Shown here: positions 59,335 through 63,134 of the stretch, one piece after another
How positions within the stretch are numbered: the stretch's first letter is position 1
How the letters are laid out: every line of letters starts with the position of its first letter
IMG/VR virus record: IMGVR_UViG_3300049329_000003
Span: 2,588 to 66,587 of that record
From: a virus
Taxonomy: Duplodnaviria; Caudoviricetes
Reading direction: 5' to 3' (one strand)
DNA: 64,000 nt
Position numbers and translations under genes: made by a program
Notes under the pieces: model-generated
The model's input: the letters and a program-made list of their open reading frames with translations, nothing else
Databases searched by the model: none
Told to the model about the DNA's origin: nothing

Positions 59335-59829
59335 CTATTCGGGCTTGGATGGCAAAGTGTAGTCTTCAGGTTTAGTATCCTGCGTGTTGTCGTAGTTCTT
59401 TTGTTCCAATATTAGTGTCGCCTGCATCGTTCGGATCTGATTCTCGTAGCTCTCCATTTCAGATTGCATCTTCCAAACTACCTCTTGCGCGTCAGCCAGT
59501 TTCCCGTCTAACTCTTCTGATTTGTTGCGCCAGAAAACAACCTGAGTGCGCATCTGTTCTTCCTTTAGGTGCCATTCGTCACGGCGCGTCTCGGCTTTGT
59601 CAATAACAGCCTGCATGTCCCGCATCAGTTCGCGCCCGAGGTTTATTTCAGCCGTCTCAGCGGTGACGTGAATACTTTTAGTTTCGGCGCGGACTCTATC
59701 AAGCTCGATTGGTTCACGTCTTTGCCTAAATCGCAGGGTGGTTATAGTTGTGACAACTGCAAGGATTGCTGTTACTACATTTGAGAGCAGTAACCAAAGG
59801 TGAGGCGAAACGGGGGTTTCTTGCTGCAT
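59335..59829 (-). CDS. N-terminal TM plus long coiled coil (holin-like or inner-membrane spanin-like)
   Basis: LWLLLSNVVTAILAVVTTITTL then heptads. Confidence 0.6.
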   Translation of the reverse strand: MQQETPVSPHLWLLLSNVVTAILAVVTTITTLRFRQRREPIELDRVRAETKSIHVTAETAEINLGRELMRDMQAVIDKAETRRDEWHLKEEQMRTQVVFWRNKSEELDGKLADAQEVVWKMQSEMESYENQIRTMQATLILEQKNYDNTQDTKPEDYTLPSKPE

Positions 59830-59830
59830 C

Positions 59831-60319
59831 TCATCGGTCCAATACCTGATTCATTCTAGAAAGGAATTCAGCCCACTGCTTATCTCGTCGCTCATCGGCT
59901 ACACGGTCTTTAATAACGAGCCTTAATTTAGGGTTGGCCCATCGCTTAGGATTCTTCTTGCGCGGAAAGATCGTGCCTGAGTACTGGGCCGAATCGGGCG
60001 GCATTAGTCGTCCGAAAGGTAATTTGCAGTATCCCCAATGCTCGCCCAAACATCCCGCGTCAGCTTGATCTTCATGTTCAAAGATTCCTTCGTCTTCACT
60101 CCAGCGAAACGTGCGCCGGACGTTGCCCTGCGCATCGGATTCGACAAGAACCTCCTTCACAGCAGGAACCTTGAATATACTGTAAGAGAATAAAAGAAAA
60201 GGTAGGTAGGCTAGTCTAAAATACCATCTCTGCCACCACGGCGCACCGTCGTCAAGGTTCCACTTCCACTGCGAAACCTTCCAGACGTCTCGTGACTCGG
60301 GTTTCGGTTCGGGTTGCAT
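59831..60319 (-). CDS. Hypothetical protein with an amphipathic/TM segment
   Basis: True start ATG 60319 with AAGGAG RBS. Confidence 0.7.
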   Translation of the reverse strand: MQPEPKPESRDVWKVSQWKWNLDDGAPWWQRWYFRLAYLPFLLFSYSIFKVPAVKEVLVESDAQGNVRRTFRWSEDEGIFEHEDQADAGCLGEHWGYCKLPFGRLMPPDSAQYSGTIFPRKKNPKRWANPKLRLVIKDRVADERRDKQWAEFLSRMNQVLDR

Positions 60320-60326
60320 AGTCTCC

Positions 60327-60473
60327 TTATTCGCCAGGAACATCGACATGGCCGGGCGGTTGCGGTGGTGGATTCTGCGGCTCATCCTGTGGCTGCGGCT
60401 TAGGTGCTGGTTTTGGTTCTGGTACATCCGGCTTCGGATCGGGTCTATCCGGTTTGTTTTCATTAGCTGTCAT
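60327..60473 (-). CDS. 48-aa proline-rich peptide (17 Pro)
   Basis: MTANENKPDRPDPKPDVPEPKPAPKPQPQDEPQNPPPQPPGHVDVPGE; AAAGGA RBS. Confidence 0.7.
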   Translation of the reverse strand: MTANENKPDRPDPKPDVPEPKPAPKPQPQDEPQNPPPQPPGHVDVPGE

Positions 60474-60551
60474 TTGGGCGATTCCTTTCTGGTTTTTGTA
60501 TTTATGCTTCCGTAGTGGCTATTATTTGCACCACTAGTTGAAATGCCGCTC

Positions 60552-60941
60552 TCAATGCGATGCTCCCCGTCTCAACGGTAAATGCTCTCTTGATTCAATA
60601 AATCTTAGTGAGACCGAAGCTGACTGACGCTTGCCCGGTACTTGGTTTTTATCTTCCATTACCTCGCGCAGTCCGTCAATTAATTCCTGCTTCTCGGCTA
60701 CCGAGATCTGTCCGCTCCCCGTCACACTTGCGATGTACTTGTCGGCCAGTTCGGATAGCCGCTCACTTGTCGGGTTGGTCGCTATCTTGATCGCGTCCAA
60801 CGAAGTCCTCAACCACCATTCGGCAAGAGGCTTTACGTCTTTCTTTAATTCAACAACATCCCAAAACAGTTTCGTTACAGCGAAGATTATAGCCAGCACG
60901 ACCGCCGTAGCGACGGATTGTGCTATCTGTTCAAGGCTCAT
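60552..60941 (-). CDS. N-terminal TM protein
   Basis: IAQSVATAVVLAIIFAVTKLF; ATGA coupling to the PAS gene. Confidence 0.75.
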   Translation of the reverse strand: MSLEQIAQSVATAVVLAIIFAVTKLFWDVVELKKDVKPLAEWWLRTSLDAIKIATNPTSERLSELADKYIASVTGSGQISVAEKQELIDGLREVMEDKNQVPGKRQSASVSLRFIESREHLPLRRGASH

Positions 60942-61465
60942 GGAGTAGCAGTTGAATCAGTAGCTCGCATCTTTACGATCGTGTAGCCATCGTTCGGATC
61001 GCTAAAGTGGCCCAGCCAGATTCCCGCCGCAATCTCTCTCCCGCGCTTATGTCGGAACGATAATCCGCGCATGGGTCGATTTGACGAGCTTACAAGGTAG
61101 CTTTCTCTATGGCTCGGATGAATCCCTTTGTACCTGTCCGGCACCATGATCTCGACAGCCTGACCGACCAGTTCGCTGCGGTGGTAGCCGGACATTTCCT
61201 CAAACCTGCGATTAACCATGACGATCTCACCGTCTTTGTCCGCCACGACGCAGGTGCCATCGGGATCGCACTCTACTACCTGCGCGCACATATTCAGGAA
61301 TCCCTCAATGCCGACTTTCGGCGCAAGGAATTGTTCCAGCCGCTCGGACATTTCCCGATTCTGCATGATCAGTTTGCGAATCTGGAAGATGCCGTAAATG
61401 ATCACCACGCCACCGAGAATCATCACGGAGTTGGCAAGGACGTTGAAAGTTGAAGTGTCAAACAT
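60938..61465 (-). CDS. Membrane-anchored stand-alone PAS domain protein
   Basis: TM (NSVMILGGVVIIYGIF), short coil, PAS DGEIVMVNRRFEEMSGYHRSELVGQAVEIMVPDRYKGIH...RPM...HKRGREI. Confidence 0.9.
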   Translation of the reverse strand: MFDTSTFNVLANSVMILGGVVIIYGIFQIRKLIMQNREMSERLEQFLAPKVGIEGFLNMCAQVVECDPDGTCVVADKDGEIVMVNRRFEEMSGYHRSELVGQAVEIMVPDRYKGIHPSHRESYLVSSSNRPMRGLSFRHKRGREIAAGIWLGHFSDPNDGYTIVKMRATDSTATP

Positions 61466-61564
61466 TGAGGGGAATCAGGTGTCCAGTTGTCCCAGTACTC
61501 ACTAGCGCATTAAGGCCAACGCTCAGCACGAGCACGAATCTCGTCCAAGGGTAGAGTAAGCAAT

Positions 61565-61644
61565 CGCAACGCTCGTCAGTGCCAATTTGCAAACTGCCCC
61601 CAATTTGCAAAGGAAAGTAAACAAGCTTCCTGGCGAGCGCTGCG
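61565..61644 (-). ncRNA. Candidate 80-nt multibranch RNA in the leader of the PAS gene
   Basis: Outer stem CGCAGCGCTCG/CGAGCGTTGCG, inner hairpins GGAAG..CTTTCC and TTTGCAAATTG-GGG-CAGTTTGCAAA. Confidence 0.45.
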
Positions 61645-61656
61645 AATTTGTTTCAG

Positions 61657-62145
61657 CTACGCCTGGGTACTACCCTCCGTCGTACCGCCGCCTGTTTCGC
61701 CGCTGCCGGTGTCGGGCACGACGCCGTTAATGTCATCAGCGATCGCCTTCACCGTGCCTTCAATCGCGCTGATTTCGTCGTCCAGTGCGGGATTGTTAGC
61801 TTTGAGATCGGCCACCTGTTGCTGGAGCGTGTTGATACCATCTGCAATGCTGGTCAGTGCGGTGTTAACGCCCTGTAATCTCTCTTCCTGTGTTGCCATG
61901 AATTCATCTACCTTTCCATTTAGATTGTTGATTAATTCGTGAATCAGGTTTAACTCTTCCGTGTGAAAACCCTGCTGTGCGGGAACGCCACCGAGCTCCG
62001 TGAGCATTGTAATGATCGCGTCCAGCTTCTGCGAGGGGCTAACAACGCCAATCTGTCCGCCGAGTAGATTTGCCAAGTTCTCACCAACGTCGAGTGTTAG
62101 TGAGTGGCGATCTGCCTTGCGCCTGTCCCGCCCTTCCCATGCCAT
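61657..62145 (-). CDS. Coiled-coil protein with N-terminal RDRRxxDR motif
   Basis: 162 aa; possible internal start at MATQEERL. Confidence 0.7.
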   Translation of the reverse strand: MAWEGRDRRKADRHSLTLDVGENLANLLGGQIGVVSPSQKLDAIITMLTELGGVPAQQGFHTEELNLIHELINNLNGKVDEFMATQEERLQGVNTALTSIADGINTLQQQVADLKANNPALDDEISAIEGTVKAIADDINGVVPDTGSGETGGGTTEGSTQA

Positions 62146-62155
62146 TGACTGCCTC

Positions 62156-62347
62156 CTACCTCGGCACCGCGCCTTCGCTCACCGCTTTAGCCATATCGGC
62201 TAATAGTCGCGCCTGTTCCGCGTCTAGCTCAATTCCCGCCGCACGCAGTACCTCCCCGTAACTCGCCTGGGGATTTTGGTTGCGAGCATCGCCAATAGCC
62301 TTGAACACATGCGGGGCAATCAGGTTGAAAATTGCGATCCACTCCAT
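62156..62347 (-). CDS. Small amphipathic protein
   Basis: 63 aa, GGAGG RBS. Confidence 0.65.
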   Translation of the reverse strand: MEWIAIFNLIAPHVFKAIGDARNQNPQASYGEVLRAAGIELDAEQARLLADMAKAVSEGAVPR

Positions 62348-62348
62348 C

Positions 62349-62798
62349 TTAATTTCCTCCTTGTAGCGCTTCGAGGCCGGCGATCACCGTGTTCATCCCT
62401 GAGATACTATCGCGCCAGACTTTTTGTGCGCTCGCGCTCTTAATGCCGAGCAGTGTCGGATCTTGTAGCCCGCGTAAGCTGGTAATAAGTGTTCTCACTG
62501 CGGCCTGTCGCGCGGAAGGATCGGGCGTTGTGCTATTGCTATTTGCAAGTCGCGCCAACTCATCGTTGACAAAACTACGATAAGCACGGTTAGCCTCAAG
62601 CAGTTTCGCGCTGATGTCGTAGTCTTGTTGCGCCGTAAGTTCATTGCGCGCGCGAAGATCACGCTTCACATTGCCCATTGTAGTGAGCATGTCTGCGACT
62701 GTCTTCGGTTGCTGTTTCCCGCTGCACGGGCCATAGCCGAATCCTACAGTTGCGAGAAGTAGTAGGATTGTCAGTTGTGAGCGTCGTTGTCGGATCAT
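62349..62798 (-). CDS. Putative lipoprotein (spanin-like candidate)
   Basis: Basic N-terminus, hydrophobic stretch LTILLLLATVGFG, Cys at about position 25 (non-canonical lipobox YGPC). Confidence 0.6.
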   Translation of the reverse strand: MIRQRRSQLTILLLLATVGFGYGPCSGKQQPKTVADMLTTMGNVKRDLRARNELTAQQDYDISAKLLEANRAYRSFVNDELARLANSNSTTPDPSARQAAVRTLITSLRGLQDPTLLGIKSASAQKVWRDSISGMNTVIAGLEALQGGN

Positions 62799-63061
62799 TG
62801 GTTTAGGTCCTCTCTCGCGTTCTTAACATCGGAAGCCTTTGCCGCTTCTCTTACTTCGGGCTTGCTTGCGCCGCCTTGAATCCGCTCAGATAGACCGGCC
62901 ACTAACAGCCCTGCCGCAGTGACTACCAGGCCAACCCATGAATACTTAGGCGGCAGCAGGTTAAGGAAGCCTGACGCTTGCAGTGAGCCAATGAAAGCAG
63001 AAACGATTGCCAGCGCTGAAACCAGCCGCCCGATCGGGCCATAGGTAAGATTTCCATTCAT
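62795..63061 (-). CDS. Holin-like protein (two TM segments, charged C-terminal tail)
   Basis: Start ATG 63061, 8 nt after TGaTACACT; LVSALAIVSAFIGSL and WVGLVVTAAGLLVAGL. Confidence 0.7.
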   Translation of the reverse strand: MNGNLTYGPIGRLVSALAIVSAFIGSLQASGFLNLLPPKYSWVGLVVTAAGLLVAGLSERIQGGASKPEVREAAKASDVKNAREDLNQ

Positions 63062-63134
63062 AGTCGAGCAGTGTATCACTTTCGGTTTAATTATGGCGGA
63101 AAAGTTACGAAACTTAGAAATCAAGAGCGCACTG

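Follow-up and report, generated by a model that had tools for sequence, protein, structure and literature searches.

A membrane-anchored stand-alone PAS protein of predicted heme-sensor type and its constant partner, near lysis-type genes in a family of tailed phages

What a tailed phage could gain from a PAS sensor that is fixed in the membrane and carries no output domain is the question raised by a 175-amino-acid (aa) protein encoded in IMG/VR virus record IMGVR_UViG_3300049329_000003 (Duplodnaviria; Caudoviricetes). The stretch analyzed here (the window, 64,000 nucleotides) comprises bases 2588-66587 of this complete 66,587-bp virus record, which has direct terminal repeats; positions given below are those of the window. 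To our knowledge, heme-PAS sensors of gas or redox state have so far been described in cells, where they serve kinases, c-di-GMP enzymes, and transcription factors as input domains, and a full-text literature search found no published heme-PAS sensor that is phage-encoded or linked to lysis. We propose that the protein is a heme-b PAS sensor tethered to the inner membrane and acting via a 129-aa partner on a late membrane event, most likely the timing of lysis, a reading that we consider evenly poised between right and wrong. It is supported in silico by fold, subfamily, conserved ligand residues, topology, strict pairing, a heptad-phased linker, and gene neighborhood. The features of the two overlapping genes are as follows, with TM denoting transmembrane, ORF open reading frame, and AF2 AlphaFold2.

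60938..61465, minus strand: 175-aa membrane-anchored stand-alone PAS protein consisting of a TM helix, a linker helix, and a heme-type PAS domain (ORF, Pfam, TIGR00229, AF2, 121 homologues)
61379..61453, minus strand: its N-terminal TM helix, residues 5-29, with invariant Asn8, Asn12, and Gly18 at the outer end (hydropathy, invariant columns)
61268..61378, minus strand: predicted cytoplasmic linker and N-cap helix, residues 30-66, with a one-heptad insertion (LIMQNRE) and the family-specific Cys60 (model, indels)
60962..61267, minus strand: PAS core, residues 67-168 (domain matches, alignments, model)
61118..61120, minus strand: codon CAT of His116, the predicted proximal heme ligand (alignment to DosP H77 and FG214 H156, conservation)
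61067..61072, minus strand: codons of Met132 and Arg133 in the F-G loop (RPMRG), putative counterparts of DosP Met95 and Arg97 and of FG214 Met172 (alignment, conservation)
60552..60941, minus strand: 129-aa partner (OG1) with an N-terminal TM helix and a conserved, predicted cytoplasmic helical bundle (ORF, pairing, homologues, model)
60938..60941, minus strand: ATGA stop/start overlap of the PAS and partner genes (sequence)

Hydropathy analysis of the PAS protein revealed a single hydrophobic segment at residues 5-29, followed by R30, K31, R37, and R42. By the positive-inside rule, which together with hydropathy underlies all membrane orientations predicted here, the protein is expected to be N-out/C-in with a cytoplasmic PAS domain. 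The domain was matched by Pfam PF00989 (33.1 bits against a cut-off of 22.6) and by TIGR00229 (46.5 bits against 22.9), and these PAS families were the sole matches in the Pfam and NCBIfam scans, with no kinase, cyclase, HisKA/HATPase, GGDEF, EAL, or helix-turn-helix (HTH) domain. All 121 homologues on which the family counts are based, out of at least 121 listed, are likewise short (112-202 aa). The AF2 model, built on 41 homologues (predicted local distance difference test score, pLDDT, of 87), has an unbroken helix from residue 4 to 66 that leads into a canonical PAS core ending near residue 168, with five strands at residues 70-75, 80-84, 131-138, 144-155, and 160-168. In a Foldseek search of the PDB the model gave 472 matches at E ≤ 1e-3, and the top ones listed are PAS domains. 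The order of TM segment, coil, and PAS domain with no output domain, which the first-pass annotation had read from the sequence, is thus borne out by hydropathy, domain scans, and structural modeling.

The closest solved relatives by both sequence and fold are heme-PAS domains, ahead of flavin-binding and other PAS types. Searched against all PDB sequences, the family profile matched DosP of Escherichia coli best (EcDOS; PDB 1V9Y/1S66/9CDR; E 2e-12), followed by the heme-PAS of FG214 (10jx, 5.5e-11) and by FixL from two species (3e-8 to 2e-4), while the best non-heme PAS, a LOV histidine kinase, appeared only from E 1.2e-4. The single window sequence retrieved eight chains at E < 0.002, all of them experimentally proven heme-PAS domains, with FG214 first at 1.7e-7. 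With the AF2 model as Foldseek query, the top 30 or so rows were RmFixL, FG214, BjFixL, and EcDOS/DosP (E 2e-9 to 3e-7), RmFixL being first at 2e-9 and FG214 the second match; PpsR and short LOV proteins came next.

The residues that hold and gate the heme in these proteins have counterparts in the phage protein. His116 (VPDRYKGIH) aligns with DosP His77 (IPRDLRPAH), FG214 His156, and the RmFixL His (MPEPYRHEH), and the alignments to DosP and RmFixL confirm the earlier remark that this His stands in their register, seven residues after the proline (P+7). Met132 aligns with DosP Met95 and FG214 Met172, Arg133 with DosP Arg97, the F-G loop alignment of Met and Arg requiring a one-residue gap, and His119/Arg120 align with FG214 His159/Arg160. 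The roles of His77, Met95, and Arg97 in DosP have been described, and R97, located at the F-G loop/G-beta start, hydrogen-bonds bound O2 (PMC11543664). In FG214, His156 is the proximal and His175 the distal ligand, with Met172 as an alternative distal ligand (bioRxiv 10.64898/2026.03.15.711900). The phage protein has no counterpart of His175, which falls into an alignment gap, and a DosP-like mechanism with hexacoordinate His/Met ligation that O2 can displace is plausible. Its F-G loop is two to three residues shorter than that of DosP, and its Met and Arg are adjacent (RPMRG) whereas those of DosP are separated by Ser.

These positions are strongly conserved. His116 is invariant in 41 of 41 aligned sequences and the P+7 His is found in 120 of the 121 homologues, which answers in the affirmative the question, put at the outset, of whether it is kept in phage relatives; R-x-M-x-G occurs in all 121 and RPMRG in 116. 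The nearest cellular PAS domains are repeats or input domains inside multi-PAS histidine kinases; pooled from the 149 closest cellular representatives, 418 such repeats keep the His in 396 cases, Met132 in 305, and Arg130 in 334. A flavin-binding LOV-type PAS was rejected, as the protein lacks the LOV Cys motif and structures of flavin-PAS domains come behind those of heme-PAS domains; in the PDB and Foldseek searches, no FAD-binding PAS structure ranked near the top by sequence or by fold. A c-type heme was rejected as well, the CXXCH motif being absent. The heme-type assignment is therefore well supported in silico, and the protein probably binds heme. Of the initial suggestion of a heme- or O2-binding sensor, membership in the FixL/DosP type thus stands by sequence, fold, and His conservation, while binding itself remains a prediction.

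Some of the cellular relatives are observations in their own right: proteins of 3,000-3,500 aa (P0138, P0142, P0145, and others) contain up to 13 tandem heme-type PAS repeats, and arrays of putative heme sites on such a scale in cellular proteins seem remarkable.

The PAS gene does not travel alone. The partner likewise has a single hydrophobic segment (residues 2-32, approximately) followed by a Lys-rich stretch (K/K/K), predicting an N-out/C-in protein with a cytoplasmic soluble part, and its model (pLDDT 73) shows a TM helix running into a four-helix-bundle-like domain. Among the aligned columns of the partner family 34 are invariant, and many of these are polar (TS.DA, ATNPTSERL, EKQELIDGLR, KRQSAS.SLRFIE). 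Across the 11 related phage loci with a close PAS homologue that were fetched for all neighborhood counts, the partner gene directly follows the PAS gene in every one, whether overlapping, abutting, or at most 7 nt downstream. The translational coupling to a 129-aa TM protein pointed out beforehand is seen as the stop/start overlap at 60938-60941, and the pair is strictly conserved. At least 121 members of the PAS family (50-94% identity, many on 55-75 kb contigs) and at least 148 of the partner family, on contigs of matching sizes, were found, which makes the two families comparable in size. A profile search of approximately 185,000 species-representative bacterial and archaeal genomes yielded no copy of the PAS family, and the phage GenBank collection gave no match to the module by blastn or to the PAS protein by tblastn. 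Complex prediction for PAS and partner scored 0.16, which is below the mark, was obtained without controls, and counts neither way.

As the PAS protein ends directly after the PAS core, its output must go via the N-terminal helix and TM segment or via the PAS surface. Asn8, Asn12, and Gly18 are invariant in the TM helix. In the 117 scorable sequences the spacing between Asn12 and the APK motif is always 22, 29, or 36, or else 33 or 40 where the TM segment has a four-residue insert, so that indels in the cytoplasmic linker are exactly one heptad long; the window protein carries the +7 form (LIMQNRE). In the partner the linker indel is 11 residues, or three helical turns. Such stepwise indels, of 7 residues in the PAS protein and 11 in the partner, suggest rigid signaling helices, and together with the invariant TM Asn and Gly residues they suggest helices that pass on a signal and are more than anchors.

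From these elements we infer heme binding, the sensed signal, the contact between PAS protein and partner, and the target, in the following order of events. The N-out/C-in TM helix would tether the sensor to the inner membrane and leave the PAS domain in the cytoplasm. His116 would serve as proximal iron ligand, with Met132/Arg133 of the F-G loop as competitors on the distal side, following the DosP pattern. The F-G loop would move when O2, CO, or NO binds or when the iron changes its redox state, and this shift would alter the PAS dimer and pass along the rigid, register-sensitive coiled-coil linker into the TM helix. There the obligatory partner, as a TM-anchored cytoplasmic helical bundle, would read the signal and act on a late membrane event. 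Holin-dependent lysis timing is the most likely target, given that phages of this family carry the pair within their lysis cassette or next to it.

Characterized heme-PAS proteins resemble the phage protein but have other outputs. FixL kinases (Sinorhizobium meliloti and Bradyrhizobium japonicum; PDB 1D06, 1DP6, 8JS5) share the P+7 His, and RmFixL is also membrane-anchored with a cytoplasmic heme-PAS. In FixL, however, a C-terminal coiled coil leads to the histidine kinase, whereas the only helix of the phage protein leads to the N-terminal TM segment. DosP is a soluble 799-aa enzyme with GGDEF-EAL output. FG214, an HTH-PAS one-component regulator of Fimbriimonas ginsengisoli (PDB 10jx/10jy), is the best single-sequence PDB match, and its heme state controls oligomerization (bioRxiv 10.64898/2026.03.15.711900). 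It is soluble, signals through its HTH domain, and has bis-His ligation, unlike the phage protein with its TM anchor, separate partner gene, and lack of a DNA-binding domain. Short PAS/LOV proteins such as PpSB1-LOV (PDB 5J3W/7R4S; Foldseek E approximately 5e-7) are similarly effector-free and signal via N-cap/J-alpha helices and dimer rearrangement, but they are soluble and cellular and bind flavin via a conserved Cys motif that is absent here. Signaling from the sensor through an N-terminal coiled coil to a TM helix, with no enzymatic output and with a separate obligatory partner, would be an unusual direction for a PAS domain.

Phage-encoded PAS sensing as such is familiar from VqmA-Phi of vibriophage VP882, a soluble PAS-HTH transcription factor which binds the quorum-sensing molecule DPO; by description it is set apart from the present protein, having no heme-type residues, TM anchor, or lysis-cassette context. 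The T4 antiholins RI and RIII, P1 LydB, and lambda S107 are small lysis-cassette-associated proteins that time holin triggering, some of them membrane-anchored. Their likeness to the PAS pair is a functional analogy only, as no relation in sequence or fold was found, and we know of no PAS or heme domain in any of these lysis-timing regulators.

The link to lysis comes from the genes around the pair, which in the window are the following.

62795..63061, minus strand: 88-aa two-TM protein with a charged C-tail (OG29), in the slot of the phrog_1299 holin of relative L007 (holin-like by topology and position only)
61657..62798, minus strand: variable three-gene block encoding a 149-aa secreted or lipoprotein-like, a 63-aa, and a 162-aa coiled-coil protein (unrelated genes in close relatives)
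61540..61660, minus strand: conserved leader upstream of the PAS gene, with two TTTGCAAAT palindromes (61585-61593 and 61603-61611) within a 12-bp outer inverted repeat (relatives' alignment)
60327..60473, minus strand: 48-aa Pro-rich ORF with a C-terminal PGHVDxPG motif, here PGHVDVPGE (counterpart in the distant relative L015)
59831..60319, minus strand: OG2, 162 aa, with one invariant Cys, its gene usually located after the pair (conservation among loci)
59335..59829, minus strand: OG3, 164 aa, with an N-terminal TM segment, RFRQRRE, and a cytoplasmic coiled coil, predicted N-out/C-in (hydropathy, conservation)

In five of the 11 relatives a recognized holin or endolysin gene lies at most 2.2 kb upstream of the PAS gene on the same strand, so that the linkage of homologues to lysis genes, named early on as a check, does hold in these loci. 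The upstream genes encode an endolysin in L010 (phrog_181, 1.7e-25), an endolysin with PG_binding_1 (4.6e-15) followed by a phrog_1299 holin-family protein (3.9e-4) in L013, and holins in L004 (phrog_9752, 2.7e-9), L007 (phrog_1299, 4.4e-5), and, as a weak match, L003 (7e-3). L003 also carries a holin/XhlA-type gene (phrog_689, 5.6e-7; PF10779) directly after the partner. Elsewhere, the pair directly follows OG4, encoding a tail-fibre-like protein, in the same orientation (L011), and two relatives have the module placed upstream of their terminase genes. In the window itself the PAS gene is indeed downstream of the holin-like ORF, as the first-pass annotation had it, but it does not adjoin it, being four genes downstream, and that ORF matches no holin family. 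The link to lysis accordingly holds at the level of the family and appears weaker in the window, where position and topology carry it.

At the upstream end of the module, the window (63059-63110), L007, and L009 share the junction IHCS[TA]M, after which unrelated small membrane proteins follow: the phrog_1299 holin in L007 and the OG29 two-TM protein in the window and L009. Relatives with PAS proteins 94-97% identical share no nucleotide similarity with the window from 63059 to 61708 (approximately 1.35 kb), although they do align over the PAS-partner and OG2-OG3 stretches. This looks like cassette swapping at a fixed junction.

Several observations weigh against a lysis-timing heme sensor. 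Relatives do not share orthologous lysis-type genes upstream (phrog_1299, phrog_9752, or no family), while PAS and partner are constant. The 88-aa holin-like ORF had no holin-family match in the Pfam, PHROGs, and NCBIfam scans, and no recognizable endolysin was found among approximately 60 ORFs of the complete genome (window and L006) by PHROGs and Pfam. Eight endolysin-type families searched in six frames found none either, nor did tblastn queries with endolysins from the relatives; two of the eight, PF00182 and PF05838, matched none of the control genomes and say little. Presumably a muralytic enzyme that escapes recognition is encoded among the proteins of the 59335-63061 module, for instance as the secreted 149-aa protein or OG2. 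The partner has no known family or informative fold match in Pfam, PHROGs, NCBIfam, PADLOC, and fold searches: VIA-align against 48,161 chains gave unrelated helical bundles with a best Z of 7.3, which is uninformative, BFVD gave nothing below E 0.17, equally uninformative, and the ESM Atlas gave just sub-threshold viral hypothetical clusters and DUF2730 at 0.79. Within the PAS domain, the gap needed to align the F-G loop Met and Arg makes their assignment ambiguous by one position. Finally, the related 75-kb contig L015 keeps the Pro-rich ORF, OG2, and OG3 but has no PAS-partner pair, and the pair is thus dispensable.

That the holin families vary around a constant pair speaks against an antiholin of the classical, holin-specific sort. 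Each of the known antiholins acts on a single holin, while the phage pair occurs with differing holin families among relatives. The antiholin-like role proposed initially is therefore disfavored in its holin-specific form, and a lysis-timing function of the pair stays plausible. PAS and partner are a separable two-gene unit that travels with lysis-region genes but with no particular holin. A holin-independent effect on lysis, or another membrane target, would be compatible with swapped holins. One such form is a two-protein inner-membrane device, with a heme-PAS sensor and a helical-bundle effector joined by phase-locked TM and linker helices, which would gate lysis or another late membrane event by O2, NO, or redox state independently of the holin used, for example via membrane energization or a conserved host membrane target; we put this forward tentatively, and would doubt it sooner than assert it.

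The same swapping of holin and endolysin genes around a constant pair would also fit a heme-type sensor pair whose target is not lysis at all, such as superinfection exclusion, interference with host respiration or envelope, or defense and counter-defense, its site beside the lysis genes then reflecting no more than the tendency of accessory genes to gather where modules meet. The pair has a conserved leader of its own with palindromic boxes, which suggests separate regulation; it is absent from L015, which keeps OG2-OG3, and in this phage it belongs to a minus-strand island of 4 kb that has an HTH gene at its head and is separate from the structural operon. Yet none of the four conserved proteins (PAS, partner, OG2, OG3) has a PADLOC match at E ≤ 0.01, and the pair is repeatedly near holin or endolysin genes and on their strand, with the holin/XhlA-type gene directly downstream in L003. 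On balance we find a target outside lysis rather unlikely.

A PAS domain that binds no heme at all is unlikely. On that reading the His, Met, and Arg would be kept for a different ligand or for contacts with a protein, in what would be a membrane scaffold or a module for dimerization. Approximately 40% of the FixL/DosP sequence cluster is without the His, so that the fold alone does not imply heme (PMC10468136). Against this, the His is kept by 120 of the 121 homologues along with the Met and Arg of the F-G loop, all significant PDB sequence matches are proven heme binders, and both the LOV Cys motif and, among the top matches, FAD-binding PAS domains are absent.

A pair of cysteines could add to, or replace, the heme with a thiol-based redox input. 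Of the 105 family members with a matchable motif, 104 have both Cys60 in the N-cap helix and Cys72 in the first strand (61249-61288, minus strand), whereas the 418 cellular repeats have Val, Ile, or Leu at position 72 and a residue other than Cys at position 60. In the model the two flank the junction of linker helix and PAS core, where a disulfide, or a metal or cluster across the dimer, might lock the signaling helix to the PAS core under oxidizing conditions. Such a thiol switch, as the whole or part of the mechanism, is quite improbable, since it leaves the invariant His, Met, and Arg unexplained and the cytoplasm is normally reducing.

Least probable of all, and slight as a prospect, is the decoy envisaged beforehand, which would heterodimerize with a host PAS histidine kinase or c-di-GMP enzyme to hijack its signaling. 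In its favor, dimerization is common among PAS domains, and the closest relatives in cells are PAS domains on the input side of multi-PAS histidine kinases. Against it, the best single cellular domain reaches only some 90-95 bits against 180-390 for family members, and in the one metagenome-assembled genome (MAG) with a contig from a related phage, labelled Pyrinomonadaceae, the best PAS match is 28% identical. The family, moreover, is an old one whose members have diverged to as little as 50% identity and keep a fixed synteny, and its dedicated phage partner and invariant TM motif speak for a circuit internal to the phage.

If, as we propose, the pair binds heme and tunes a late membrane event such as lysis, it would give viruses a novel means of sensing the physiology of the host, and these phages may read the oxygen or redox state of the host late in infection. 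Holin triggering depends on membrane energization, which makes an oxygen or redox input to lysis timing biologically sensible.

Of the remaining genes of the module, OG3 resembles PAS and partner in its build: all three have an uncharged or acidic N-terminus, one TM segment, a basic cluster, and a predicted cytoplasmic helical domain, which suggests a common membrane-proximal assembly. OG3 was considered as an i-spanin and rejected, as its N-terminus is acidic or neutral and RFRQRRE or RRKRE follows the TM segment in all members; the basic cluster after the TM segment predicts a cytoplasmic coiled coil and not the type II topology of an i-spanin. The 48-aa Pro-rich ORF is probably a real gene, because it has a counterpart in L015; as an o-spanin it was rejected, with no signal peptide or lipobox. 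The call of OG2 as a 210-aa ORF was over-extended and overlapped the 48-aa ORF, and the conserved start M49 at 60319 gives 162 aa. An OG2 profile matched a single MAG contig among the genomes searched, and the ESM Atlas held no usable match to OG2.

The leader of approximately 100 nt is nearly invariant and is kept in L007, L008, and L009, and in variant form in L010, in front of which the upstream genes differ. Its TTTGCAAAT palindrome has only two exact copies in the window, both in the leader and 18 nt apart. The predicted RNA pairs are all invariant and so give no covariation evidence for a structured RNA, and a promoter and terminator scan of the module returned sites not above chance. 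Possible roles of the element are those of an operator bound by a dimeric regulator, a promoter, and an RNA hairpin.

L012:6827-9346 (IMGVR_UViG_3300022663_000379), where a viral contig of 68.9 kb ends, encodes a TM-GAF-PAS-HisKA-HATPase-REC hybrid histidine kinase whose PAS domain is 33% identical, and which could be a phage-borne kinase or host flank. The contig lacking the pair (L015/L016; NCBI GCA_035491875.1, contig DATJKB010000744.1, 75.5 kb) has a GIY-YIG endonuclease gene and a gene for a 197-aa tail-anchored coiled-coil protein in its place. It is a related phage genome binned in the MAG mentioned above, a soil MAG labelled Pyrinomonadaceae bacterium (Acidobacteriota), which is the sole and weak hint to a host, for a related phage; the hosts of these tailed phages are probably uncultured soil bacteria.

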